From the IMG/VR virus record IMGVR_UViG_3300033066_000360, positions 20,154 through 84,153 of that record: 64,000 bases of DNA. One strand, given 5' to 3'. Every line of letters begins with the position of its first letter. Within the stretch, counting starts at the first letter, position 1. This DNA is from a virus. Its lineage: Duplodnaviria > Caudoviricetes. The position numbers and the translations under genes were made by a program. Under the pieces are notes generated by a model, which was not told where the DNA came from, ran no database searches, and saw only the letters and a list, made by a program, of their open reading frames with translations. This document shows positions 2,898 to 29,119 of the stretch, one piece after another.

Positions 2898-3058
2898 ACA
2901 GGTGGGTCTTAATCCGCTTTGCTTGTTACTATACGGGATACCTTCTTTTTAAGATAGTGTTGGGATTTCAGTGGGAATGGATTATTGAGATCCCAGTTTG
3001 TCTGTTCTATCTAGTGTTGAGTGCAATTCTTTCTTGGGAAAAACAGGAGGCAAAATGA
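2894..3058 (+). CDS. small membrane protein (54 aa, not in the ORF track)
   Basis: AGGAGG SD, ATGA overlap, MNRWVLIRFACYYTGYLLFKIVLGF...EKQEAK. Confidence 0.55.
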   Translation: MNRWVLIRFACYYTGYLLFKIVLGFQWEWIIEIPVCLFYLVLSAILSWEKQEAK

Positions 3059-3222
3059 TTCTCAAAAAGCTTTTCTGGGCGCTATTCTTTTTCTCTGGAG
3101 CACTTCTTGCCCACTGGATTATGAATCAGCTAATTGGAGTTCCACTGATATTCATACCAATCTTTCACATTCCAATGTTTATCTTCTCTTTGGTGCTCTC
3201 AATAGTCAGTAAGGATGATTAA
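3055..3222 (+). CDS. small membrane protein
   Basis: AGGAGG SD, hydrophobic. Confidence 0.6.
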   Translation: MILKKLFWALFFFSGALLAHWIMNQLIGVPLIFIPIFHIPMFIFSLVLSIVSKDD

Positions 3223-3246
3223 ACAACCGCCCTACCCTATCGTGTT

Positions 3247-3258
3247 GCCCTACCGGGC
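3247..3258. repeat. GCCCTACCGGGC hairpin motif
   Basis: Exact copy, intergenic; partial copy GCCCTACCC at 3229. Confidence 0.8.
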
Positions 3259-3292
3259 TAGCAGAGTGGGTGTTTTTACTAGGAAATAATGT

Positions 3293-3508
3293 ATGACAAA
3301 TCGAAATGAACGGCTCAAACTTGTTGCGGCAGAGAAGCGTGCTCTTGGCTTTCCACCTGTTTCACCAAGCAAATATGCTTACTATGACCAGACTGAAGTA
3401 GCTCTAAAGTCAATGGAGCGTATCAAAGAGATTGCTAAGGACTTGATGGCAGAGAAGAAGCGTCTTCGAAGCGCAGTTCGACAACTCGTAAAAATGAAGG
3501 TAGAATAA
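3293..3508 (+). CDS. hypothetical protein
   Basis: ORF with SD. Confidence 0.6.
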   Translation: MTNRNERLKLVAAEKRALGFPPVSPSKYAYYDQTEVALKSMERIKEIAKDLMAEKKRLRSAVRQLVKMKVE

Positions 3509-3515
3509 TCTTCAT

Positions 3516-3589
3516 GCCCTTGTAGCTCATCGGACCAGAGCAGGAAGTTTCTACCTTCAAGGCAGGGGGTTCAATTCCCTCCAAGGGTA
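3516..3589 (+). tRNA. trnR: tRNA-Arg(TCT)
   Basis: Cloverleaf, anticodon loop TTTCTAC, T-loop TTCAATT. Confidence 0.85.
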
Positions 3590-3604
3590 TCCATAGGAGG
3601 ATAT

Positions 3605-3838
3605 ATGAATTTGTATTGCGGAACAATTGTTGGTCGGATTAATGGCGATGTAAAGAAAGTTGTTTCTTGCTATCGACTGGCAAAAACAGAAGAGAAAGCA
3701 AAGGCAAGCATAGCCAAAGATTACAAGGATCTTGATGAATTGTCTATTTGCATAGATCTCATTGATCCTGAAGTAATTCGCGCTTGGTACGAGAAGGTTG
3801 TTATCGAGCCTATCGGGGAGGGTCTAGATGTTTCCTGA
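3605..3838 (+). CDS. hypothetical protein
   Basis: ORF with GGAGG SD. Confidence 0.65.
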   Translation: MNLYCGTIVGRINGDVKKVVSCYRLAKTEEKAKASIAKDYKDLDELSICIDLIDPEVIRAWYEKVVIEPIGEGLDVS

Positions 3839-4034
3839 TCCAGATGTATGGCGGTGGGGTAGAGATGACTCCGAACCACCGGACAATCCGTATAAACATT
3901 TAGAAGAAGAAGACGATGAAGATGGTGATCCTGATCTTTGGGAGGATGAAGAGGAGTTGATTGTGGAAGGTGAGCCAGTAAACGAAATGGATTGGCTTAT
4001 TTCTTATGTCTCTCTAGTGCATCATCGTCTATAA
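3828..4034 (+). CDS. small highly acidic protein
   Basis: D/E-rich ORF with SD. Confidence 0.55.
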   Translation: MFPDPDVWRWGRDDSEPPDNPYKHLEEEDDEDGDPDLWEDEEELIVEGEPVNEMDWLISYVSLVHHRL

Positions 4035-4035
4035 T
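4030..4035 (+). promoter_or_regulatory. -10 element upstream of the tRNA array
   Basis: TATAAT about 20 nt upstream of tRNA-Leu(TAG). Confidence 0.45.
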
Positions 4036-4054
4036 GTTTCCAATCGGAAACAGT

Positions 4055-4137
4055 GCAACCATGGTGAAATGGCAGTCACAGCAGGCTTAGAACCTGCCGC
4101 CCTAAAAAGCGTGGGGGTTCAAGTCCCTCTGGTTGTA
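4055..4137 (+). tRNA. trnL: tRNA-Leu(TAG)
   Basis: GCAGG-CTTAGAA-CCTGC arm, long variable arm. Confidence 0.9.
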
Positions 4138-4248
4138 TATGCAGAGCAGGCACTCCTGTAGACACGGCGCTATGCAGAAGGTGGCTATACCGGTAGGATC
4201 CTACTGGGACGAGCGGAAGCGAGAGATACCTCCCATTCTCTCTTAAAT

Positions 4249-4330
4249 GCAAGTATGGCGGAATGGCATACGCGGGAGCCTGAGAAGCTCTGCTCGAAAG
4301 GGCGTGAAGGTTCGAGTCCTTCTATTTGCA
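4249..4330 (+). tRNA. trnL: tRNA-Leu(GAG)
   Basis: Loop CTGAGAA, long variable arm. Confidence 0.9.
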
Positions 4331-4429
4331 CTGCATTCGATGGTGTCTGCGCGGAGTCCGGAATCATCTGGCAGAACTAGAGAACCGGCCCACAACATGG
4401 CCAAGTTAGTGGGGAATCCGTAAATTCAT

Positions 4430-4502
4430 GGAGAAGTAGCCCAACGGCAGAGGCAACAGTCTCAAGAACTGTTTAGTGAGAGTTCGAATCTCTCTTTCTC
4501 TA
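4430..4502 (+). tRNA. trnL: tRNA with CAA (Leu) anticodon, short variable region
   Basis: ACAGT-CTCAAGA-ACTGT, 5-nt variable loop. Confidence 0.8.
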
Positions 4503-4569
4503 CTGACCGCTCCTTGTGGTTTCTTTTTGTTTTGTAGCTTTTTGTTTTCCACAAGGGGATGGTCTCCAT

Positions 4570-4644
4570 GCAAGTGTGAGGCAACCGGCAGACCTGATAC
4601 ACTTAAAATGTGTCGTTCTATGGGTTCAAATCCCATCACTTGTA
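4570..4644 (+). tRNA. trnL: tRNA-Leu(TAA), short variable region
   Basis: ATACA-CTTAAAA-TGTGT, 6-nt variable region. Confidence 0.85.
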
Positions 4645-4661
4645 TCTAATATGAATATAAT

Positions 4662-4735
4662 GGGGAAATGCGCTAATGGTTAACGCGAACAATCTTATAA
4701 ATTGTTGATTGAACGTTCAAGTCGTTCTTTCCCTA
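4662..4735 (+). tRNA. trnI: tRNA-Ile(TAT)
   Basis: ACAAT-CTTATAA-ATTGT, A73. Confidence 0.85.
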
Positions 4736-4768
4736 CTACCACAAAAGAAGAACTTTTTTGTGTATATA

Positions 4769-4879
4769 CGGTCAAGGTGGCTAATGTGTTGGTTGATAGC
4801 TGCGAGAGTCTGGCGAGCACTTTCAATTGGCATCCACTACGTGGCGTATGTCGGACGGTGAGCATGGTCATGTGTTGAC
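4769..4879 (+). ncRNA. candidate ncRNA closed by a GGTCAA/TTGACC terminal stem
   Basis: End-to-end pairing of an inter-tRNA spacer of about 110 nt. Confidence 0.3.
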
Positions 4880-4930
4880 CCAGAAGTACAGCATGAATCA
4901 GCCGTGGGAAGCCGATAGATTCCCAAATAC

Positions 4931-5003
4931 ACACTGTTAACTCATCGGTCAGAGTGCCTTTCTTACAAATAGGAAGCAGGGGGTTCAATTCCCTCACAGT
5001 GTA
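4931..5003 (+). tRNA. trnV: tRNA-Val(TAC)
   Basis: Loop CTTACAA, acceptor ACACTGT/ACAGTGT. Confidence 0.9.
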
Positions 5004-5054
5004 TAGATGGTTAGTAGATATATCGCGCGTTAGGTATCGAAAGCCATCTTTCAT

Positions 5055-5127
5055 GCTCTATTGGGCAAGCGGCCAAGCCACCTCTCCTTCAAAGAGGCAA
5101 TCGTGGGTTCGAATCCCACATAGAGTA
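5055..5127 (+). tRNA. trnE: tRNA-Glu(TTC), C at position 33
   Basis: CCTCT-CCTTCAA-AGAGG. Confidence 0.85.
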
Positions 5128-5129
5128 CT

Positions 5130-5220
5130 GTTCCTAGTGAGTCCAAGGTTCGGTAAGGAACACATTCACTTTCGGTTGAAAGTGGTGTAAAGCAGGAATC
5201 CGACTTCTCACGTTTCCTGC
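5130..5220 (+). ncRNA. three-hairpin RNA with loop1-loop3 complementarity
   Basis: Stems GTTCCT/AGGAAC, CACTTTC/GAAAGTG, GCAGGAA/TTCCTGC; loops GTGAG..AAG..TCGG vs CCGA-CTT-CTCAC. Confidence 0.55.
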
Positions 5221-5225
5221 GCTAT

Positions 5226-5297
5226 GCTTCGGAAGCCGAAGGGATAGGCGCTACTCTGTCTAAGTAGTTGAAGTGGGTTCAAATCCCATCCGGGGCG
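5226..5297 (+). tRNA. trnD: tRNA-Asp(GTC)
   Basis: CTACT-CTGTCTA-AGTAG. Confidence 0.9.
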
Positions 5298-5404
5298 CTA
5301 AATAGTAGGAGGATCAAAATAACGCTTGTTCTCGGTCTAAAATGACCAACCACTACTATGATGAAGATGTATTACTTGTAAGAGTGTCAACAATACGTCT
5401 TTAT

Positions 5405-5477
5405 GCTTCTTTCGGCAAGCGGCTTAAGCCACTTGGTTCTCAACCAAGAGATCGCCGGTTCGAATCCGGCAAGAAGC
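5405..5477 (+). tRNA. trnE: tRNA-Glu(CTC)
   Basis: CTTGG-TTCTCAA-CCAAG. Confidence 0.9.
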
Positions 5478-5578
5478 ACTTGGAGTGATGGATATAACTC
5501 CAGCGTAACAGCCATGGATGAAGCGTGTCCACGCATAGATTCTAGGTATCATGTAGAATACGTGAAGTTCTACAAAGT

Positions 5579-5649
5579 AGCAGGGTAGAGTAGCGGCCAC
5601 TCACCGGCCTCATAAGCCGTTTACACGGGTTCGATTCCCGTTCCTGCCA
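5579..5649 (+). tRNA. trnM: tRNA-Met(CAT), A1:C72 mismatch (initiator-like)
   Basis: CGGC-CTCATAA-GCCG; unpaired 1:72. Confidence 0.8.
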
Positions 5650-5718
5650 TCACTATCTCTATGGCGCACATGAGATAGCGTCCCGTAAACGGGGGACCGT
5701 ACGTGAACTGGTCATTAT

Positions 5719-5792
5719 CTGGGTATAGCTCAATCTGGAAGAGCACTTGCTTTGGGAGCAAGACGTTAGGGGTTCAAATCCCTTTACCTAGA
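5719..5792 (+). tRNA. trnP: tRNA-Pro(TGG) copy 1
   Basis: CTTGC-TTTGGGA-GCAAG. Confidence 0.9.
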
Positions 5793-5805
5793 CTCAGTTC
5801 ATGTT

Positions 5806-5941
5806 TGGATTGGCTCGCCCGATTAAGCTACTAGTGGCTGTAATCGTACCCCTCAACAGGGTAAAAGCGTCCCCTTCTGAATCCCCTGAACTGCCGTAAG
5901 AAAACTTGTTGAGAGTTTTCGTGGAGTACGTTAAAAGCTCC
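5806..5941 (+). ncRNA. multi-hairpin RNA with a perfect 7-nt kissing-loop pair
   Basis: TACCC-CTCAACA-GGGTA (5847-5863) and GAAAACT-TGTTGAG-AGTTTTC (5900-5920); the loops are exact reverse complements. Confidence 0.65.
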
Positions 5942-5945
5942 ATAT

Positions 5946-6020
5946 ATAGGTGTATATCAGTCTGGTCAGATTGCTCCCCTTGGAAGGGAGTGGGCACAGG
6001 TTCAAATCCTGTCACCTATA
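5946..6020 (+). tRNA. trnP: tRNA-Pro(TGG) copy 2 (A37)
   Basis: CTCCC-CTTGGAA-GGGAG. Confidence 0.85.
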
Positions 6021-6122
6021 CTCTGATGAATTTCGCTGAATCGTCTAAGGACGAAGGAGCGGGAAATCGAAGACGTAATCAATGTGTCATAGCATCGAGA
6101 GGCATACGATAAGTGCCAAAAC

Positions 6123-6205
6123 GGAAGGACGGCAATAGGCGTAGTACACTGTCTTGAAAACAGAAAGCCGTAAAAGGCTTGTGGGTTCGACTCCCACTCC
6201 TTCCT
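6123..6205 (+). tRNA. trnS: tRNA-Ser(TGA)
   Basis: Loop CTTGAAA, long variable arm. Confidence 0.9.
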
Positions 6206-6308
6206 CTGGATCCCTTGCTTTGGGCATGTAGCTACTAGGCGGCGGCAAGAAGTGGTCTGGATACATCTAGCTAATATAAGCTCTATGGCCCAATATGGTG
6301 TATCTTAT

Positions 6309-6394
6309 GGAAAGGTGACGGAATCTGGTAATCGTTCCTCTTTGCTAAAGAGTGAGTCCGTAAGGACACGCAGGTTCAAATCCTGTCCTTTCCT
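6309..6394 (+). tRNA. trnS: tRNA-Ser(GCT)
   Basis: Loop TTGCTAA, long variable arm. Confidence 0.9.
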
Positions 6395-6398
6395 CTGT

Positions 6399-6471
6399 GC
6401 CGCTCTAGCTCAAATGGTAGAGCACTAGTCTGAAGAACTGGGGGCAATGGGATCGTTACCCATGGGCGGCT
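6399..6471 (+). tRNA. trnF: tRNA-Phe(GAA), atypical T-loop ATCGTTA
   Basis: CTAGT-CTGAAGA-ACTGG. Confidence 0.85.
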
Positions 6472-6476
6472 TGTAT

Positions 6477-6560
6477 GAGCAGAAGTCAGATACGGTTTGC
6501 TTGTGACTGTCTGTAAAACAGTTCCCTTCGGGGGTGGGGGTTCGAATCCCTCTCTGCTCA
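6477..6560 (+). tRNA. trnY: tRNA-Tyr(GTA)
   Basis: ACTGT-CTGTAAA-ACAGT, long variable arm. Confidence 0.9.
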
Positions 6561-6561
6561 C

Positions 6562-6590
6562 TTGACAAATCTCCAAATGGAGAGTATTGT
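6562..6590 (+). promoter_or_regulatory. sigma70-type promoter upstream of tRNA-Asn
   Basis: TTGACA-17 nt-TATTGT. Confidence 0.65.
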
Positions 6591-6600
6591 GTTTGTATGT

Positions 6601-6673
6601 TCCCGTGTAGCTCAGGGGTAGTAGCAGCGCACTGTTAATGCGCCAGTCGTTGGTTCAAATCCAGCCATGGGAG
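6601..6673 (+). tRNA. trnN: tRNA-Asn(GTT)
   Basis: GCGCA-CTGTTAA-TGCGC. Confidence 0.92.
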
Positions 6674-6707
6674 CCTATTTCCGACTGGAAATAAATAGGA
6701 GGAATAA

Positions 6708-7139
6708 ATGAAGAGGTTACTTGTGTTATGGGTCGCGCTCGGCTTGATGTTTGCTGCATGTGGTGCGCCTACTGGCGATAGAAGCTATGGTGTTGCCAAG
6801 AGGCTTGGAGAGGGGCGGCATATCGTGTCGAATGTCGAGAAGCTCAACAATGGCATGAATGTGATCTGGTTCTTTGGAGAGAACGATTACGTTTACTGTA
6901 CGTTTGATGACAAATTGGCTGCAATGGCTCGTGCAATCAAGAACGATCCGGGTCCAAATGACGGAATTGCTCTGTATGAATACAGAGATTTCATCACTGG
7001 AGATCCTGAGTTTGGGCTAGATCCATCTGGTTATTACTGGTGGTCTACTTGTGGGGTTGGAATTACTGCCACATACAAGTCCAAGCTAATGTCCATCAAG
7101 CCATTGCGTCCACTAGTGAATGAAGTGGTTTTGAGATAA
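6708..7139 (+). CDS. predicted lipoprotein
   Basis: Signal peptide with lipobox FAAC. Confidence 0.7.
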   Translation: MKRLLVLWVALGLMFAACGAPTGDRSYGVAKRLGEGRHIVSNVEKLNNGMNVIWFFGENDYVYCTFDDKLAAMARAIKNDPGPNDGIALYEYRDFITGDPEFGLDPSGYYWWSTCGVGITATYKSKLMSIKPLRPLVNEVVLR

Positions 7140-7172
7140 CTAAATAGTCGGGATGTTACAATCCCGGCATAC

Positions 7173-7246
7173 GCTAATGTAGCTCAATCCGGCAGAGCAA
7201 CTCCTTTGTAACGAGAAGGTTGGAGGTTCAATTCCTCTCATTAGCT
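7173..7246 (+). tRNA. trnT: tRNA-Thr(TGT)
   Basis: Loop TTTGTAA. Confidence 0.88.
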
Positions 7247-7250
7247 TTGT

Positions 7251-7305
7251 GGGTCTGGATGTAAAGGCTGTCCTAGGCGTGTCGGTTCAACTCCGATCAG
7301 ATCCA
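7251..7305 (+). ncRNA. tRNA-like RNA lacking an anticodon arm, G3:U70/A73
   Basis: Acceptor GGGTCTG/CAGATCC-A, T-arm GTCGG-TTCAACT-CCGAT, only 23 nt between them. Confidence 0.65.
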
Positions 7306-7311
7306 CTAAAT

Positions 7312-7384
7312 GGGGACACATGTACCAAGGGGGCGACTGATACTTGCAATATCGGTGTGAGGAGTTCGATTCTCCTTGTTTCCA
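7312..7384 (+). tRNA. trnA: tRNA-Ala(TGC)
   Basis: Loop CTTGCAA, G3:U70. Confidence 0.9.
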
Positions 7385-7388
7385 CTAT

Positions 7389-7461
7389 GTATGCAGACTC
7401 AAACGGTGATGAGAACACTCTGATAAGGTGTCCGTGTGAGGTTCAATTCCTCTTGCATACA
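7389..7461 (+). tRNA. trnI: tRNA-Ile(GAT)
   Basis: ACACT-CTGATAA-GGTGT. Confidence 0.9.
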
Positions 7462-7466
7462 CTACA

Positions 7467-7478
7467 GCCCTACCGGGC
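7467..7478. repeat. GCCCTACCGGGC hairpin motif
   Basis: Exact copy between two tRNAs. Confidence 0.8.
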
Positions 7479-7484
7479 TAATAA

Positions 7485-7556
7485 GCACATATAGCTCAGT
7501 GGAAGAGTTAGCGCCTTCGAAGCGCGGGGTCGGGAGTTCGAATCTCTCTATGTGCT
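7485..7556 (+). tRNA. trnR: tRNA-Arg(TCG)
   Basis: GCGC-CTTCGAA-GCGC. Confidence 0.88.
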
Positions 7557-7558
7557 CT

Positions 7559-7640
7559 GGGAGAGGGACAAGCGGTGTTTGACTGTTCCTCCTAGCGGTA
7601 AGAGATCGTGTTCGGCGTAAGTTGTTCGGTCCCTCTCCCT
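7559..7640 (+). ncRNA. rod-like candidate ncRNA with an 11-bp terminal stem
   Basis: GGGAGAGGGAC/GTCCCTCTCCC. Confidence 0.5.
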
Positions 7641-7644
7641 TTAT

Positions 7645-7717
7645 GCGCGTGAAGCTCAACGGAAGAGCATTTCCCTGCGAAGGAAAAGGTTTAAGGGTTC
7701 AATTCCCTTGACGCGCT
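7645..7717 (+). tRNA. trnR: tRNA-Arg(GCG)
   Basis: TTTCC-CTGCGAA-GGAAA. Confidence 0.85.
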
Positions 7718-7860
7718 TAGCGTAAGGATGCATACCTGCGCTAACCTTGGGTAGTGAAGGGTTGTGCACTACTGCTATCTGGTGACGCTACAATACCAGC
7801 GCCTCTTGCCGACGAAAGACGCAAGGAGTTCTTGCTGGTTCTCTCCAAAAGAATCAGGTG
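7718..7860 (+). ncRNA. candidate ncRNA with an H-type pseudoknot and hairpins
   Basis: AACCTT/AAGGGTT stem; loop GTAGTG pairs with CACTAC (7767-7772). Confidence 0.45.
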
Positions 7861-7862
7861 AT

Positions 7863-7935
7863 GCGGATATGGCTCAGTTGGTAGAGCAGGATCTTGCCAA
7901 GATTCAGGTCGCGGGTTCAAGTCCCGCTATTCGCT
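7863..7935 (+). tRNA. trnG: tRNA-Gly(GCC)
   Basis: Loop TTGCCAA. Confidence 0.92.
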
Positions 7936-8008
7936 TGAGCGGTTCGACTTTTAGTTTTCCAAAGGTAAATCTAGGTCGTCCGCTCTTTTATGTTAAAAGG
8001 AGGTCGGA

Positions 8009-8527
8009 ATGAAGAATATCTTTGTCATCAGCGATACGCACTTCGGTCACGAGCTTATGACCACCGTACTGACAGATCAAGGCAAGCGTCTCCGGCCTTG
8101 GAATACGACTGAGGAGATGGATGAAGTTCTCATTGCCAATTGGAATTCTGTTGTTACTCCAAGTGACAAGGTTTACCATCTGGGAGACGTATTCTTCCCC
8201 CGTAAAGGGAGAATGCTCTTGTCTCGACTCAATGGAGATAAGGTTTTGATTCGTGGGAACCATGATGGTCATCCAATCAAGGATTACCTAATGGGATTCA
8301 GGGACATCCGGGCCTTACATGTGTTGGACGGAGTAATCATGACTCATGTTCCAATCCATGAACAGAGTCTTTCCCGCTGGAAAGGCAACATTCATGGACA
8401 TTTGCACGAGCATCGAATTCTTGATCGGCGTGGATTGCCTGATCCGCGTTATACTACTGTCTGTGTGGAACACATCAACTACACTCCTAAAGAGTGGTCG
8501 GTGGTTCGTAGTGAACTGGTAGCTTAG
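8009..8527 (+). CDS. metallophosphoesterase
   Basis: SDTHFGH, HLGDV, GNHD, THVP, HGHLH. Confidence 0.9.
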   Translation: MKNIFVISDTHFGHELMTTVLTDQGKRLRPWNTTEEMDEVLIANWNSVVTPSDKVYHLGDVFFPRKGRMLLSRLNGDKVLIRGNHDGHPIKDYLMGFRDIRALHVLDGVIMTHVPIHEQSLSRWKGNIHGHLHEHRILDRRGLPDPRYTTVCVEHINYTPKEWSVVRSELVA

Positions 8528-8585
8528 TGGCTAAAGCAGCATGCTCTTAACATGCCTATCGTGGGTTCAAATCCCACCCGGTTCT
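8513..8585 (+). tRNA. trnK: tRNA-Lys(CTT), overlaps the last 15 nt of the upstream CDS
   Basis: GCATG-CTCTTAA-CATGC. Confidence 0.9.
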
Positions 8586-8586
8586 T

Positions 8587-8658
8587 GTACTCGTGGTGTA
8601 ATGGTTAGCACGATAGGCTGTGGCCCTGTTAGAGCCGGTTCAAATCCGGTCGAGCACT
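8587..8658 (+). tRNA. trnH: tRNA-His(GTG)
   Basis: ATAGG-CTGTGGC-CCTGT. Confidence 0.85.
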
Positions 8659-8674
8659 TAAATAGGAGGATTAA

Positions 8675-8902
8675 ATGGAAACAATGTGGGTTATTAAGCG
8701 GGATCGAGCCATTGAAGGTTCATCCGATATTATCTTTATTTGCAAGACGGAACATACAGCAAGGTATCTTGTTGAAATACTGAAAGGAGCCGAGCAAAAA
8801 GCTCGCAAGTTCAATAAGACTCAATCTGTTACCATTGATAAGACTTCATGGACAGTTAGTAGAGGAGATTCGTTTGAATACGACAGTTATCCAGTTTATT
8901 AG
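8675..8902 (+). CDS. hypothetical protein
   Basis: ORF with AGGAGG SD. Confidence 0.65.
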   Translation: METMWVIKRDRAIEGSSDIIFICKTEHTARYLVEILKGAEQKARKFNKTQSVTIDKTSWTVSRGDSFEYDSYPVY

Positions 8903-8989
8903 AGATATAGTTCTTGTGTTTGTTATCACTCTCCCGTTCTTTGCTATCGGGCTTCTAATACAAATGGTTCATAAATTCAGGAGGAAATA

Positions 8990-9229
8990 ATGGAAATTAC
9001 AAATACAACCTACATCATTACATTCATCACAAAGGGTGGGTCTTATAACACCACAATGTTTGATCCTGTTGATGGTGGTTATCAAGCAATTGATAAGTTT
9101 ATCGCTGCCTACATGAAGGCAAACCCAAGTATTGTTGAACATACAAAGAGAATGGTCATTGGAACACCGGTTTTTAGAGAGCGTGCCATTGGAAAGGACT
9201 TCAATGATGTTTATGAGGTGGTCAAGTGA
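8990..9229 (+). CDS. hypothetical protein
   Basis: ORF with AGGAGG SD. Confidence 0.65.
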   Translation: MEITNTTYIITFITKGGSYNTTMFDPVDGGYQAIDKFIAAYMKANPSIVEHTKRMVIGTPVFRERAIGKDFNDVYEVVK

Positions 9230-9462
9230 AAACAGCGGTGCAGTATCTCAATGCCGCAGATCGAGTATTCAAAATACAACAGGACTACAGGTTTGTCGGA
9301 GTTGACTATGAGCGAAGAGTTGGTCTAATCACAGAGGCAAAGAATCTTGCCGCCGAGTTTGGACTAGATCAGTCCATATACTTGGCGAATTGTACTCCAG
9401 AAGAGTATTTCCTTGGATTGGAAAGACTTCTTGGGAGAGCGGCAGTAGACGCTGTAGAATAA
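9226..9462 (+). CDS. hypothetical protein
   Basis: GTGA overlap, SD. Confidence 0.6.
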   Translation: MKTAVQYLNAADRVFKIQQDYRFVGVDYERRVGLITEAKNLAAEFGLDQSIYLANCTPEEYFLGLERLLGRAAVDAVE

Positions 9463-9471
9463 AAGAATAGT

Positions 9472-9543
9472 GGGTTTGTAGCTCAATGGCAGAGCGGGAG
9501 ACTTTTAACCTCCGCGTCGTAGGTTCGATTCCTACCAGACTCA
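9472..9543 (+). tRNA. trnK: tRNA-Lys(TTT)
   Basis: Loop CTTTTAA. Confidence 0.9.
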
Positions 9544-9559
9544 TATAAAATTGAATAAA

Positions 9560-9631
9560 GGGTGTGAAGCGTCATGGCGATGCACTGAACTCCAAATCCA
9601 GCAACAGCAGGTTCGATTCCTGCCACGCCCG
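9560..9631 (+). tRNA. trnW: tRNA-Trp(CCA)
   Basis: Loop CTCCAAA. Confidence 0.85.
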
Positions 9632-9640
9632 TAGAGACTA

Positions 9641-9730
9641 GTGGAGGTTTCCAACCATCACGAATGCTCGAAGAGAAGCTTGGCTCTTAATAATTCAAGC
9701 AGTTCCGTGGGGTCAGCTTCAAGACTCCAC
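9641..9730 (+). ncRNA. candidate structured ncRNA
   Basis: GTGGAG/CTCCAC closing stem; inner loop AAGCT complementary to AGCTT at 9715. Confidence 0.4.
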
Positions 9731-9734
9731 AAAT

Positions 9735-9807
9735 GGCTACTTGGCCAAGTGGAAAGGCGTCTCCCTGCAAAAGAGATACCGCGCTGGTTCGATTCCAGCA
9801 GTAGCCT
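9735..9807 (+). tRNA. trnC: tRNA-Cys(GCA)
   Basis: Loop CTGCAAA, U73. Confidence 0.9.
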
Positions 9808-9809
9808 CT

Positions 9810-9962
9810 TGGGGTGGATGAGAGCGAAAGCTTAAGGATCCTCAACTGTATATCCAGAACAGTGATTATGGACGTTTCCGAAGCCCGATAGCTCGGACGA
9901 GAGCCGTTGCTCGTAATAATGTCGGGAGTTGTTATGGGACCATTCTCTCTAAAATGAACGGC
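9810..9962 (+). ncRNA. candidate pseudoknotted ncRNA(s)
   Basis: CCCGATA/TGTCGGG and ACGAG/CTCGT stems; loop GCCGTT pairs with AACGGC (9957-9962). Confidence 0.45.
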
Positions 9963-9968
9963 CCATAC

Positions 9969-10039
9969 GCGAATATGGCCGATAGGCTAGGCTCCACGCC
10001 TCCAACGTGGCTAGACGGGTTCGATTCCTGTTATTCGCT
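9969..10039 (+). tRNA. trnG: tRNA-Gly(TCC), C at position 33
   Basis: CCACG-CCTCCAA-CGTGG. Confidence 0.85.
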
Positions 10040-10258
10040 TTTGCCGCACATGTTCAGAGTCAATTCCACACCTAGGCAATATGGATGCGATATGACATGC
10101 TTACGCAATCCTTCTCTCTCTTCGGATCAGTAAGTAGGGACGGACACCAGCACCGGCAAGGCTAACGCTGGATTTTGCTAGTTACTACAAATTAGCTCTT
10201 ATCCTTTCACTGTTGTAAAGGACGCTTTGGCCATTGTGCAACGTTAACAATGGCACAT

Positions 10259-10330
10259 GATCTAGAAGCTCAATGGACGAGCAAGATTTTCCTAAAATCT
10301 GGGCTGTGGGTTCGAGTCCCATCTAGATCT
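10259..10330 (+). tRNA. trnR: tRNA-Arg(CCT)
   Basis: AGATT-TTCCTAA-AATCT. Confidence 0.9.
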
Positions 10331-10441
10331 TAGCCAACCGCGTGGTTGGTGAAGAGGGTAGAGGTTTTTATTCAGGGTTATCTTTCCAGCTGCCCGTGGT
10401 GATTGAGCCTTTACCCTCTTAGTCTTTTTCAGGAGGAACTT

Positions 10442-10696
10442 ATGAATGACAGAACATGGGCATTTCTAGAAGCAATCAAGAACATGGCGCTTAGCATTAT
10501 GCCGCTATATGTCGCGTTTGAGAATGATAAATTCCGCTTAGATCTTGTCGTAGAGATGAGACAAATGGAACAAACCCTCAAAAAGCTACATGCCAGTATC
10601 AAGAAGTCGGGGACTTGGGGGGCATCCGAGAGGGAACAGTACATTACTATCGACAAGAGAATGGATGAGATACTGTATATCGGTGAAAGGGGCTAG
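10442..10696 (+). CDS. hypothetical protein
   Basis: AGGAGG SD before ATG 10442. Confidence 0.65.
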   Translation: MNDRTWAFLEAIKNMALSIMPLYVAFENDKFRLDLVVEMRQMEQTLKKLHASIKKSGTWGASEREQYITIDKRMDEILYIGERG

Positions 10697-10758
10697 AAAG
10701 GCATTCGACAGCGAGAGTGGGTTCAAACGGCCCAGTCTTATACCCGATACTTTCGTTG

Positions 10759-10855
10759 GGGGAAGAAGGGTTTCGACGGTAAGTGATGGCATAAATGGAC
10801 TTGTCTAAAACCCAGATGATCTTATCGGACGCAGGTTCAACTCCTGCCTTCTCCA
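10759..10855 (+). ncRNA. ssrA: miniature tmRNA-like RNA (97 nt)
   Basis: GGGGAAG/CTTCTCC-A acceptor with G3:U70; GG..TTCGAC; P2 GGTAAG/CTTATC; 3' GGAC-GCAGG-TTCAACT-CCTGC. Confidence 0.8.
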
Positions 10856-11259
10856 TATAAAGAGGAATATGTTGCAATTATTTTAAGCGCAAATTCATAC
10901 GCATCTTTAGCGCGTATTCCTGATTTTGGGGGCTTTGTCCAAAGCTCAAGATTATCTGGAGAATTGTCATCACGAATGCCATTCTTATGATGAACCGTTT
11001 CTTCCGGAAGCAGATATCTTCCAATCATGGATTCCATGACCAAGATGTGTTCAAAAATATAATGTCCCTTTCGGGGATGTCCGGGTGGACGAAGAATGAG
11101 CTTGTAGCCCTTTTTATGCAAAGATCCTTTGCTTTTCTTTCTCTGAAAACTGGCTCTTTCTAGGTTAAAGCATCTAATACACGACTTGGCTCTAATTCCG
11201 CATTCCTGTCCACAAATCGGACAAGTCTTTTTGCGATTCCAACTCTTTTGTTTATTCAT
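10837..11259 (-). CDS. HNH homing endonuclease with N-terminal Zn ribbon
   Basis: CPICG..CIRC; EHILVME..VHHKNGIRDDNSPDNLELW. Confidence 0.9.
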   Translation of the reverse strand: MNKQKSWNRKKTCPICGQECGIRAKSCIRCFNLERASFQRKKSKGSLHKKGYKLILRPPGHPRKGHYIFEHILVMESMIGRYLLPEETVHHKNGIRDDNSPDNLELWTKPPKSGIRAKDAYEFALKIIATYSSLYGEGRS

Positions 11260-11320
11260 ATAGGGAATTATACACGGATTAATGGGTTTGATTCCCCGCT
11301 AGTCCACTAATAGGAGGAAC

Positions 11321-11584
11321 ATGATCTTTGAGGTGGAGATCCGCAAGAAGGTCTTTGAATTCGGATATGTCCGAGTAGAAGCCAAGAATGAAGAGGAGGC
11401 TCTTCAAGTTGCCCAAGACATTGCAGATGGTGATGAAGATGGGATTGAATGGGATTCCATGACGGAAGCAATCGAAGACTCTCTAGAAGCAAGAAATCCT
11501 GCCGAGTGGACTAACAACGTCATGATTGGCGACAGAATGGCTGTCCCGGTCCTGCAAGAAAACGGCTCCTATATATTGGAGTAA
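11321..11584 (+). CDS. small protein, DpnD/PcfM-like pattern
   Basis: FEVEIRKK..VRVEAKNEEEALQVA. Confidence 0.6.
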   Translation: MIFEVEIRKKVFEFGYVRVEAKNEEEALQVAQDIADGDEDGIEWDSMTEAIEDSLEARNPAEWTNNVMIGDRMAVPVLQENGSYILE

Positions 11585-11590
11585 GGAGGA

Positions 11591-11842
11591 GTGATGATCG
11601 AGTTTCTTAAACGCAAGGGCTTTGCTCTTGTTCCTGAGTGTGGCCCAGATTATTGGCACAAGACATTTCCAATCGGAAATATTGTCTGGAGAATCAGCGT
11701 CTCTTTTGACGATTGGGGAGTGCAATTCATCTCTATTGGCGGGACCGATAGGGGATGTGTCACTCTTTTCAGGGAAGACATGAAGCTTCTTCTACCCATT
11801 CTTCGAACAATGACCCTTCTCATGGGAAAGAATGAAGTGTAG
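11591..11842 (+). CDS. hypothetical protein
   Basis: ORF with SD. Confidence 0.6.
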   Translation: MMIEFLKRKGFALVPECGPDYWHKTFPIGNIVWRISVSFDDWGVQFISIGGTDRGCVTLFREDMKLLLPILRTMTLLMGKNEV

Positions 11843-11851
11843 AATGGCCGT

Positions 11852-11924
11852 AGTCCTATGGTCAAATGGTATGACGGAATGCTCTGAACATTCAAGTCGT
11901 TGGGTTCAATTCCCCGTGGGACTG
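11852..11924 (+). tRNA. trnQ: tRNA-Gln(CTG)
   Basis: GAATG-CTCTGAA-CATTC; imperfect T-stem. Confidence 0.85.
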
Positions 11925-11939
11925 CTATAGGAGATAAAT

Positions 11940-12077
11940 ATGTTTCAATGTATCGGAAGTGATGCGTATTGCTTGGCTGCAATCAAGCTTACGGAAAACA
12001 TCTTTTGGGGCGTGGTTCTTGTAGTGGTTCTCTTCGGAGTTGGCTACTGGTTCTACAGACTCATAAAGGATTTGTAG
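11940..12077 (+). CDS. small membrane protein (45 aa) between the two Gln tRNAs
   Basis: AGGAG SD; MFQCIGSDAYCLAAIKLTENIFWGVVLVVVLFGVGYWFYRLIKDL. Confidence 0.55.
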   Translation: MFQCIGSDAYCLAAIKLTENIFWGVVLVVVLFGVGYWFYRLIKDL

Positions 12078-12148
12078 TCTCTTAGCTCAATTGGCAGAGC
12101 GGAACACTTTGAATGTTTAGGTTAGTGGTTCAAGTCCACTAGGGACTG
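12076..12148 (+). tRNA. trnQ: tRNA-Gln(TTG)
   Basis: AACA-CTTTGAA-TGTT. Confidence 0.9.
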
Positions 12149-12176
12149 TAAATAGGAGGAAATATGTATAAGATCT

Positions 12177-12562: not shown

Positions 12563-13546
12563 ATGGGATTAGCATATATTGGAAAAGTGATTCAAGTTCG
12601 CCCAATTGAGGGTGCAGACAGGATCCATTCCGTTCAAGTTGTGTGTGGTAAGGGTGGGATTTGGAATGGTGTTGCAAGTAAAGAAATAGTAGAAGGCAAT
12701 CTTGTAGAAGTTTATCTTCAAGACGCAATTCTTCCAGATGGAGAAAGATTCGACTTCATGGATAAATATCACCGTAGAGTATCTATGAAGAGATTCAAGG
12801 GCGCTCCTAGCGATTGTTTGATTATGTCTTTGGCAGATAGTACTGCTGATTTACTTGCTAAAAGCGCGCCTCTTTGGGTGGGATTCGACTTGACCGATCT
12901 TCTTGGCGTTAAGAAGTACGAGAAAGAGGTTATCTATGGACAGGGAGAGATTATGGGCGGATTCACTACTCTCCTTCCCAAGACAGATGAACCCAACTTC
13001 CAGTCTGTTCCAGATATCGTAAGGGAAACTTTTGCGTATCCATGGAGTGCAACTCTTAAGTACGATGGAACTTCTTGTACTATTCTAAAGACCGATGAGG
13101 GTGAATTGCAGGTCTTTTCTCGAAATATGCGCATTCGAGAGGGATCCAATAATTACTGGCGTATCGTAGATAAATATGATTTACGAAATGCCATTCTCCC
13201 CGGAGAAGCTTTCCAGATGGAAATTGTCGGACCTGGAATTCAGAAGAATCCCCTTGGTCTCAAGGAGATTGATGCTTTTGTCTTCAATGCCTTTTGGGAA
13301 TGGAAACCGGTCCATTATGTTAGGAATTTCCAGAGAATATTGATTCCGGCAGCAGAGGAAGTGTGTCGATATGGCCCAAGAGATGTTCCAAGCAACGAAG
13401 AGCTATGGAAACTTGCAGAAAGAACATATAAGAATGGGACTATTGCCGAAGGGGTTGTCATTCGGCCACAGCATGCAGACTTTCCAAGAAGCACAATGGG
13501 AGAACGGCTGTCTTTTAAGGTAATCAATCTTCTTTACGGGAAATAA
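12563..13546 (+). CDS. ATP-dependent RNA ligase (Rnl2/DRB0094-like) with N-terminal OB-like domain
   Basis: Motif I KYDGTS, motif III QMEIVG, motif IV EGVVIR, motif V FKVIN; GGAGG SD. Confidence 0.9.
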   Translation: MGLAYIGKVIQVRPIEGADRIHSVQVVCGKGGIWNGVASKEIVEGNLVEVYLQDAILPDGERFDFMDKYHRRVSMKRFKGAPSDCLIMSLADSTADLLAKSAPLWVGFDLTDLLGVKKYEKEVIYGQGEIMGGFTTLLPKTDEPNFQSVPDIVRETFAYPWSATLKYDGTSCTILKTDEGELQVFSRNMRIREGSNNYWRIVDKYDLRNAILPGEAFQMEIVGPGIQKNPLGLKEIDAFVFNAFWEWKPVHYVRNFQRILIPAAEEVCRYGPRDVPSNEELWKLAERTYKNGTIAEGVVIRPQHADFPRSTMGERLSFKVINLLYGK

Positions 13547-13547
13547 T

Positions 13548-13868
13548 ATGGGCTGGATTGGTGTTGACTTAGATGGAACACTTGCGGAATATGGGGGCTG
13601 GAAGGGGCCAAACAACATCGGCCTGCCGGTTCCTAAGATGTTAAAGCGTGTCCAGAAATGGCTGAAGGAGGGCGCAGACGTAAGAATCTTCACGGCCAGA
13701 GCCTATATTCCTGAGCAGATTCCGCCGGTTCAGGCGTGGTGCGAGAAGCATCTTGGTGTGATTCTTCCCGTCACGAATGTAAAGGATTTCGGTATGTCCG
13801 AACTTTGGGATGACCGCGCCATACAGGTTATTCCGAATACCGGCGAAAGAGTGGACGGAAAGATATGA
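13548..13868 (+). CDS. HAD-family phosphatase (PNKP phosphatase-like)
   Basis: DLDGT motif I, FTAR motif II, WDDR motif IV. Confidence 0.8.
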   Translation: MGWIGVDLDGTLAEYGGWKGPNNIGLPVPKMLKRVQKWLKEGADVRIFTARAYIPEQIPPVQAWCEKHLGVILPVTNVKDFGMSELWDDRAIQVIPNTGERVDGKI

Positions 13869-28331: not shown

Positions 28332-29119
28332 CAGAAGATGAGATGAAGGAAGCCTTCAACAAGAAGAAGGCAGAAGTGCATGCCTTGGCCCGAAAGGAAG
28401 TCAAATATAAGGTCCAAACCTTTAAGGCAACTACAGGCAAAGCACTATTGGCCCCATACATTGATGCTCGTGACGTATTCCGCTTTTTGGATATGCTCTT
28501 TGGTATGGGGAACTGGCAGACAGAACTGGAGCCAGTAATGTTTGGCAAGGACGCTACGTCCCTTGCATTCGTTGGAACCATTAAGATCCGTTATCCGTGG
28601 ATGACCGAATGGGTTTCCTACACGGATGTTGGCATGCTTGAAGGAGCCGATGATGACGTAGAAATGTCGGTAAAGGGAACTGCTTCTGGCGCTTTTAAGA
28701 GAGCCGCAGTTCAGATTACGGATGTTCTTGGCAGATTTCTTTATGATCTTCCGATGGTTTGGATGGATGCTGTATCGCGTGATCCAAAAGACCCAAGCAA
28801 GTGGAAGGCCCCAATGCCTTGGGAAGTGGATGCCTTCATCAAAGGTGGCATGAAGCCTGCTCCAAAGATCAAGGATAACTCACCATCGGTTCAGTCCAAG
28901 ACTGCTGCTCCCAATGTAACAGCCGAAAAGGTTTCAGAGAATGTAGTTGTTTCACCGCCCACTGAAAGCGAAGAAAAGCCTGAAAAGGCTATGGACTGGA
29001 CGGAGTTCTGGGGACGATTTAAGAACGATGCTGATGGACGCAAGACAGCAAAGGACTTGAAGGACAAGAATCCGAAGCTTACTCCACGTGAGCTATTGGA
29101 TCTTCTGAATAAGAAATGA
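28328..29119 (+). CDS. Rad52/Sak-like ssDNA annealing protein
   Basis: YIDARDV..LD.LFG..NWQ; KGTASGAFKRAAV..GRFLYDLP. Confidence 0.85.
   Translation: MTEDEMKEAFNKKKAEVHALARKEVKYKVQTFKATTGKALLAPYIDARDVFRFLDMLFGMGNWQTELEPVMFGKDATSLAFVGTIKIRYPWMTEWVSYTDVGMLEGADDDVEMSVKGTASGAFKRAAVQITDVLGRFLYDLPMVWMDAVSRDPKDPSKWKAPMPWEVDAFIKGGMKPAPKIKDNSPSVQSKTAAPNVTAEKVSENVVVSPPTESEEKPEKAMDWTEFWGRFKNDADGRKTAKDLKDKNPKLTPRELLDLLNKK

Follow-up and report, generated by a model that had tools for sequence, protein, structure and literature searches.

The presence of a gene of only 97 nt that resembles transfer-messenger RNA (tmRNA) within the tRNA gene array of a phage raises the question of what such an RNA could do for the virus that encodes it and how it came to occupy its present position. 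The DNA analyzed here (hereafter the window) makes up the final 64 kb of an IMG/VR virus record of 84 kb with a CheckV completeness of 65%. The Rfam scan of the window matched the tmRNA family RF00023 to positions 10759-10858 (+) with 57.7 bits and an E value of 5e-20, above the gathering score of 47, and the alignment covered the model from 1 to 374, a range in which 306 internal positions were deleted; when a 301-nt sub-region was scanned, the gene scored 49.1 bits. A first-pass annotation, made from the letters of the sequence, had described a miniature tmRNA in which the tRNA-like domain (TLD) is intact and the mRNA-like domain is missing, and had named the RF00023 search as a way to check this; the score and the block of deleted positions bear the description out, and the motifs and small reading frames that it listed were all recovered at the positions it quoted when the sequence was read base by base. 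As the gene lies nested within a second, interrupted copy, the two are referred to as the inner and the resident gene, respectively (Table 1).

The acceptor strands of the inner gene, GGGGAAG (10759-10765) and CTTCTCC (10848-10854), pair at seven of seven positions and include G3:U70 (G10761/T10852), which together with A73 (10855) provides the identity set of alanyl-tRNA synthetase (AlaRS). The D-loop is stemless, with TTCGAC (10772-10777) at its end, P2 is formed by GGTAAG (10778-10783) with CTTATC (10821-10826) in six pairs including one G-U, and GGAC (10827-10830) precedes a T-arm of the form GCAGG/TTCAACT/CCTGC (10831-10847). Every invariant TLD position is intact in this copy, and its assignment to the tmRNA TLD draws on the RF00023 score, the acceptor with G3:U70 and A73, and the TTCGAC/GGAC/T-arm set. 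The TLD of canonical one-piece tmRNA (RF00023) is thus matched at both ends of the model, whereas its mRNA-like domain of ~300 nt, its tag frame and its pseudoknots PK1-PK4 are all missing: the interval between the P2 strands is exactly 37 nt (10784-10820), the apical region consists of a 22-nt AT-rich loop over a 3-bp helix, and no counterpart of PK1-PK4 was detected in the fold or in a three-way alignment with two homologues, nor is there space for one. The minimum free energy fold of the isolated inner RNA is unremarkable (z = -1.66), and its upper P2 is weaker than in the two homologues (six pairs, then three). The case for the gene is its homology to RF00023, not its folding energy. The same fold favors a competing GGGTTT/AAACCC pairing, which was rejected as a real feature, having no counterpart in either homologue.

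Table 1. Coordinates of the features of the locus (window positions) and of the HNH homologues with adjoining tmRNA genes (positions in the named contigs)
Feature	Position	Strand	Evidence or arrangement
tRNA genes (33), none with encoded CCA	3515..12149	all +	ARAGORN, Rfam, trailers
Resident mini-tmRNA, 5' part	10690..10758	+	blastn to L048:8982-9053; three-way alignment and consensus fold
Inner mini-tmRNA, TLD-only	10759..10855	+	RF00023 match and motifs read in sequence
Inserted block relative to L048 (~525 nt)	10760..11283		blastn synteny; only 4 nt (L048:9054-9057) at this place
HNH_3 endonuclease gene, 140 aa	10837..11259	-	Pfam HNH_3, E 1.6e-9; full-length family alignment
Resident mini-tmRNA, 3' part	11277..11306	+	blastn of 11284-11323 to L048:9058-9096, 90% identity
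L052, HNH homologue; tmRNA	3001-3462; 3463-3878	+; -	convergent, 0-nt gap
L233, HNH homologue; tmRNA	1501-2010; 2011-2386	+; -	convergent, 0-nt gap
L235, HNH homologue; tmRNA	1501-1971; 1973-2316	+; -	convergent, 1-nt gap
L231/L232, HNH homologue; tmRNA	1501-1953; 1019-1408	+; +	same strand, HNH 92 nt downstream
L234, HNH homologue; tmRNA	1501-1989; 1081-1465	+; +	same strand, HNH 35 nt downstream

The locus is embedded in the tRNA array between tRNA-Arg(cct) (10259-10330) and tRNA-Gln(ctg) (11852-11925). ARAGORN called all 33 tRNAs of the window but no tmRNA in it. The inner gene has no encoded CCA, and its trailer TAT is of the same type as the trailers of the neighboring tRNA genes. In addition, a CCA-adding-type nucleotidyltransferase (PF01743, 86 bits) is encoded upstream of the window at positions 13356-13751 of the full record (G000), and this enzyme together with the tRNA-like trailer would fit maturation of the inner RNA in the manner of a tRNA. 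No SmpB gene (PF01668) was found in the whole 84-kb record (65% complete), which extends to the full record the earlier remark that the window contains none; likewise, genes for Pth, RF-1/ArfB, AlaRS and an integrase were not found in the 84-kb record, and a sigma-70 promoter and terminator scan around the locus gave nothing usable. Elsewhere in the array, a 55-nt alanine-type minihelix was observed at 7251-7305 (+), just 5' of tRNA-Ala, with a 7-bp acceptor GGGTCTG/CAGATCC including G3:U70, A73 and a 5-bp T-arm; it lacks TTCGAC and GGAC, reaches only 18 bits with RF00023 and has no counterpart in the related contig L048 by blastn.

The contig L048 was found via the RNA ligase encoded 1.7 kb downstream of the locus (the two ligases are 90% identical) and shares synteny with the window along the tRNA array by blastn. 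It carries one uninterrupted mini-tmRNA of ~100 nt (8982-9080; RF00023 54 bits), which is the orthologue not of the inner gene but of the resident gene that is split in the window. In the 5' part of the resident gene, the acceptor strand is GGGCTAG, the D-loop again ends in TTCGAC, and P2 is complete, closing on itself as a hairpin of 9 + 4 pairs with a GAT bulge. Its 3' part is degenerate, with GGAC changed to GGAT, two of the five T-stem pairs and C56 lost, and a T-loop reading TTTGATT; the 3' acceptor strand CTAGTCC and A73 (11299-11306) are intact, and the two acceptor halves pair 7/7 including G3:U70. The differences in P2 between the resident copy and L048 are compensatory (e.g., GGGT/ACCC vs GAGC/GCTC), and the inner, resident and L048 RNAs align over their full length with a common consensus fold. 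The possibility raised earlier, that the gene is a recent deletion remnant of a full-size tmRNA, fails on this comparison since both homologues, the resident copy and L048:8982-9080, are equally small.

Relative to L048, the inserted block contains the inner mini-tmRNA, the HNH gene and a 24-nt HNH leader. The comparison shows the uninterrupted state to be the ancestral one and the nested state to be derived, and the point of entry lies at the GGAC/T-arm junction of the resident gene, where the insert broke the old copy and at the same time supplied a new one. No close homologue of the inner copy was recovered by the pattern scans of viral and metagenome contigs, among the matches listed; the exact 29-nt 3' end had 0 matches in 185,579 species genomes and therefore gave no clue to a host or donor; blastn with the 100-nt RNA returned only T-arm matches of ~30 nt to ssrA fragments and attP-type sites; and isolated phages contained nothing that matched the locus by blastn.

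A divergent form of 88 nt is present in L226 (5441-5528), a more distant relative; with L048 at 54 bits and L226 at 37 bits by RF00023, the lineage keeps a mini-tmRNA. The D-loop of the L226 form lacks TTCGAC. In L050, another more distant relative, no tmRNA-like match was present in the 10 kb upstream of the ligase gene, and single-protein pattern scans of viral contigs with the RNA ligase and with a 703-aa vWA-like protein yielded no further relatives. A ribosome-binding site and a small ORF were observed directly 3' of the mini-tmRNA in L226, the resident copy and L048; the proteins encoded downstream of the mini-tmRNA in the window, L048, L226 and L050 show no clear homology, and no conserved RNA-protein pair is claimed. 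On the other side of the locus, L048 lacks ~256 nt (window 10434-10689) directly upstream of the resident mini-tmRNA, which may represent a second insertion at the same locus, and a 97-aa ORF without a Pfam match (10403-10696, +) ends there with its stop codon overlapping the first bases of the resident RNA gene. It was also observed that a 75-nt mini-tmRNA in an isolate of Parafrankia sp. EUN1f (L225:2978-3052) has the acceptor GGGCTAG/CTAGTCC of the resident copy and L048.

The HNH gene is convergent with the inner mini-tmRNA and overlaps it by 19 nt, its last six codons and stop codon lying over the T-arm and the 3' acceptor strand. Homologues of the protein are 43-51% identical to it, and the full-length alignment of seven of them (45-50% identical) contains an N-terminal Cys-rich region, the HNH_3 domain and a conserved C-terminal block. 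In all five cases in which the surrounding DNA of a homologue was examined, the HNH gene adjoined the 3' end of a tmRNA gene (52.8-118 bits), either convergent or on the same strand (Table 1). The tmRNA association of the family, the presence/absence difference from L048 and the interruption of the resident gene together argue for a homing endonuclease with an RNA cargo, the inner RNA gene being the putative cargo of a tmRNA-targeting unit; this fits an HNH protein that would home on tmRNA-type genes and carry the neighboring RNA gene along. T4 SegB is a free-standing phage homing endonuclease gene in a tRNA gene region. Like such free-standing homing genes, the HNH gene of the window is a small gene beside a conserved RNA gene, its presence varies between close relatives, and where it is present the target gene is interrupted; unlike them, the unit in the window brings a complete replacement RNA gene, which is nested in the resident gene. 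A reading of the insert as a group I intron was discarded, as the HNH gene is antisense and no intron family match reaches the gathering threshold in the window.

Unusual T-loops that depart from GGTTC.A.TCC were observed in four of the five full-size tmRNA genes beside HNH homologues (those in L052, L233, L234 and L235); the departure could be a lineage trait or could reflect target-site immunity to the HNH nuclease. A fuller scenario, tentative and on balance doubtful, is that of a selfish gene-replacement unit, in which the HNH nuclease cuts tmRNA-type genes, rival mini-tmRNAs included, in the T-arm, and repair copies in the HNH gene together with a resistant mini-tmRNA. If it were true, homing endonucleases directed against tmRNA would spread TLD-only tmRNAs horizontally among phages, and the replacement rather than loss of the broken copy would imply that the phage needs the tag-less RNA as an alanine-charged, ribosome-entering antagonist of trans-translation.

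As precedents, the first-pass annotation had cited only mitochondrial ORF-less forms and full-size phage tmRNAs, and the novelty that this suggests is not supported: a 'TLD only' tmRNA is listed for mycobacteriophage DS6A (Hudson, Lau and Williams 2014, PMC4131195; repeated in PMC11915505), and titration of SmpB by a TLD-like molecule has been considered in print (PMC4131195, PMC11915505). The DS6A gene was located at 28478-28560 of JN698994 and scores 43.2 bits with RF00023, under the cut-off of 47. Both RNAs are phage-encoded and share the 7-bp acceptor, G3:U70, A73, the stemless D-loop, a short P2 and the T-arm, and neither has a tag frame or pseudoknots. They differ in that the DS6A RNA is 79 nt long and has a P2 of 7 bp that ends in a small GC hairpin, whereas the inner RNA has 97 nt and a 37-nt AT-rich apical region, and in that DS6A is a temperate siphovirus without a tRNA array according to the feature table of its record, whereas the inner gene lies in an array of 33 tRNAs and is fused to an HNH gene. 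Reduction to the TLD is also found in the ORF-less tmRNAs of jakobid and oomycete mitochondria and in CDS-less plastid tmRNAs, which are kept alongside an SmpB encoded elsewhere (PMC11915505); plastid forms of ~65 nt were added in the 2025 update of the tmRNA database (PMC11915505). These organellar forms are inherited vertically and work with the SmpB of the same cell, whereas the inner RNA is viral and would have to use or oppose the SmpB of its host, but they demonstrate that a template-free TLD can be of use.

Pattern scans for a 5' TLD half, a short gap and a 3' TLD half revealed that mini-tmRNAs are a common class in phages. With a gap of 25-55 nt, viral contigs yielded 23 stretches under a strict pattern and at least 120 under a relaxed one, and species genomes yielded 51 matches, about half of which had a 7/7 acceptor and were true mini-tmRNAs from many phyla; mid-size forms numbered nine in viral contigs (gap 44-74 nt) and 16 in metagenome contigs (gap 40-70 nt). 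At least 100 unique viral forms of 73-86 nt have the DS6A layout, and forms of 95-123 nt also occur. Among the matches listed, 100 unique 73-86-nt forms had a mean of 5.8 consecutive P2 pairs against 0.59 in shuffled sequences, with 79 distinct P2 strands; P2 in these forms shows heavy covariation, and the class is real and under selection. Moreover, in two scans that left the 3' acceptor strand unconstrained, the 7/7 acceptor, G3:U70 and A73 were present in all 29 unique RNAs, 13 of which had an encoded CCA. MAFFT misaligns the 5' acceptor strand of this class, and ARAGORN, run on 155 mini-tmRNA loci, called none of the mini-tmRNAs as a tRNA or tmRNA. In 124 of these 155 loci (L009-L171, mean 8 kb), the mini-tmRNA was the sole tRNA-like gene by ARAGORN or by pattern; of the 27 cases with a tRNA within 500 nt, 26 had it on the same strand. 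A search for SmpB in 49 other viral records that carry a mini-tmRNA, of which 13 are at least 90% complete, found none.

The inner RNA has the features of the phage TLD-only group (a short P2, no tag frame, a length within ~73-125 nt), and its 97 nt place it among the mid-size forms. The apical motif of the majority of 79-nt forms, an A-rich stretch followed by CC and a 3-4-bp GC hairpin, is missing from it, and its own apical region resembles only those of L048 and the resident copy, so that it represents a separate sub-type and not the sub-type of DS6A. It belongs to a longer (~100 nt) sub-type of the DS6A kind that occurs in this phage group. Two observations concern other members of the size range. 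Six loci (L033, L035, L038, L045, L047 and L167) hold mid-size forms of 102-107 nt with a repeated CGAAAG and GGCC, which may form one pseudoknot-like element between the P2 strands, and most of these forms lack an encoded CCA. In a 54-kb contig of a Pseudescherichia metagenome-assembled genome, a 99-nt gene (L215:4791-4889) has E. coli-type ssrA ends with the lower P2 joined directly, and it has the appearance of a full tmRNA that underwent an internal deletion, which would be an independent route to a TLD-only form.

As to function, the preferred reading, to which a probability of about 0.55 is assigned, is that the inner element is a working gene for a tag-less, TLD-only tmRNA that arrived with a tmRNA-associated HNH unit and competes with the host tmRNA via SmpB. 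The inner RNA would be transcribed with the tRNA array and excised by tRNA-processing enzymes, would receive its CCA from a phage or host CCA-adding enzyme, and would be charged with alanine by the host AlaRS via G3:U70 and A73. Its TTCGAC/GGAC elbow would then bind host SmpB, on which the phage would depend given that no SmpB was found in its record or in the 49 others, and EF-Tu would deliver the RNA to stalled ribosomes with an empty A site. The exact contacts of SmpB lie within the TTCGAC/GGAC/P2 domain. Because the inner RNA has no template, the nascent chain would gain at most one alanine and no degradation tag, and release of the peptidyl-RNA would depend on drop-off with Pth or on alternative rescue factors; the record itself, in which no Pth or RF-1/ArfB-type gene was found, offers nothing to resolve a peptidyl-TLD, which counts against this reading. 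Meanwhile, the inner RNA would compete with the host tmRNA for SmpB and stalled ribosomes, and tagging by host ssrA would be turned off or bypassed during infection. It has been reported that SmpB binds the TLD and that the complex of SmpB and Ala-TLD resembles a tRNA occupying the A site (PMC3022190).

The first-pass annotation had offered two options for the role of the RNA, tag-less rescue and SmpB sequestration, which are the reasonable candidates. As described in PMC4131195, Mao 2009 observed strong inhibition of tmRNA in E. coli by a similar TLD-like molecule, possibly through titration of SmpB, and the inhibition was independent of whether the molecule could be charged. Since no charging was needed there, a pure sponge, in which the RNA sequesters host SmpB and leaves the host tmRNA unprotected and inactive without being charged or entering the ribosome, is a serious rival, though rather unlikely here; besides the E. 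coli result, it fits the lack of a phage smpB gene in the present record and in the 49 others, and the 124 of 155 loci without a nearby tRNA gene suggest a specific anti-host role over general support of translation. What speaks against it is that a sponge would need neither the alanine identity set and perfect acceptor seen in 29 of 29 RNAs nor the CCA encoded in 13 of them, and retention of the charging determinants throughout the class favors entry into stalled ribosomes. The TLD-specific features also bear on a role outside trans-translation, for instance as an alanine-accepting decoy for a host nuclease directed at tRNA or tmRNA, or as a substrate for RNA repair. Such a role has on its side an Rnl2-type RNA ligase, phosphoesterases and a full tRNA set in the same block and the second alanine-type minihelix at 7251-7305, but it is very unlikely given that a generic decoy has no use for TTCGAC, GGAC and P2, which are specific to the tmRNA TLD and lie in the domain bound by SmpB (PMC3022190).

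Whether the inner RNA works at all, and whether it carries a template of its own, are the other points on which the readings divide. The inner gene could be an inert passenger, donor-phage flanking DNA dragged along by HNH homing, in which case the phage may lack a working mini-tmRNA; its physical fusion to the HNH gene with the 19-nt overlap, its lack of close relatives among the matches listed and its weak upper P2 are all compatible with this. The passenger account is nevertheless improbable, as the invariant TLD positions are intact in the inner copy whereas the 3' half of the resident copy has decayed, as would follow if only the inner copy were now under selection, and as the lineage otherwise retains a mini-tmRNA (L048, L226). 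At the opposite extreme, the RNA would be a miniature but complete tmRNA whose 37-nt loop provides a resume codon and a stop, adding a short non-proteolytic tag (A-GLV or DGINGLV, both read out in the first-pass annotation) before normal termination. A three-codon frame ending in TAA does exist (GGA CTT GTC TAA, 10797-10808) with a UA-rich context upstream, an in-frame GAT start at 10785 and GCA TAA at 10789-10794, and tags of two amino acids occur naturally in full-size tmRNAs (PMC11915505). In the three-way alignment, however, the TAA is one base off in L048 and missing in the resident copy, so that frame, stop and proposed first codon are all unconserved in both homologues and the proposal is hardly credible. 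Furthermore, the first codon would be GGA rather than the usual GCN (alanine), neither a pseudoknot nor a single-stranded leader accompanies the frame, only ~9 pairs separate the TLD from the apical hairpin loop that holds the frame, a chance stop codon is expected in an AT-rich 37-mer, and the common 79-nt forms leave no space for any frame.

The preferred reading of a working, tag-less TLD-only tmRNA thus concerns an RNA of a kind that is already known and was first described in DS6A; what is added here is the context of the HNH unit and the longer sub-type. The value of the locus is that a resident mini-tmRNA was broken by, and replaced through, a tmRNA-associated HNH unit. That an intact copy arrived with the very insertion that broke the resident gene is an argument that the phage benefits from the RNA, and the HNH gene family, which appears to home on tmRNA genes, would offer mini-tmRNAs a route for spreading. 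The class is missed by standard annotation, ARAGORN being silent here and the DS6A gene falling under the Rfam cut-off. Trans-translation, a drug target, is the main route by which bacteria rescue ribosomes and tag proteins, and a small RNA from a phage that co-opts or blocks this route via host SmpB would be a natural inhibitor.
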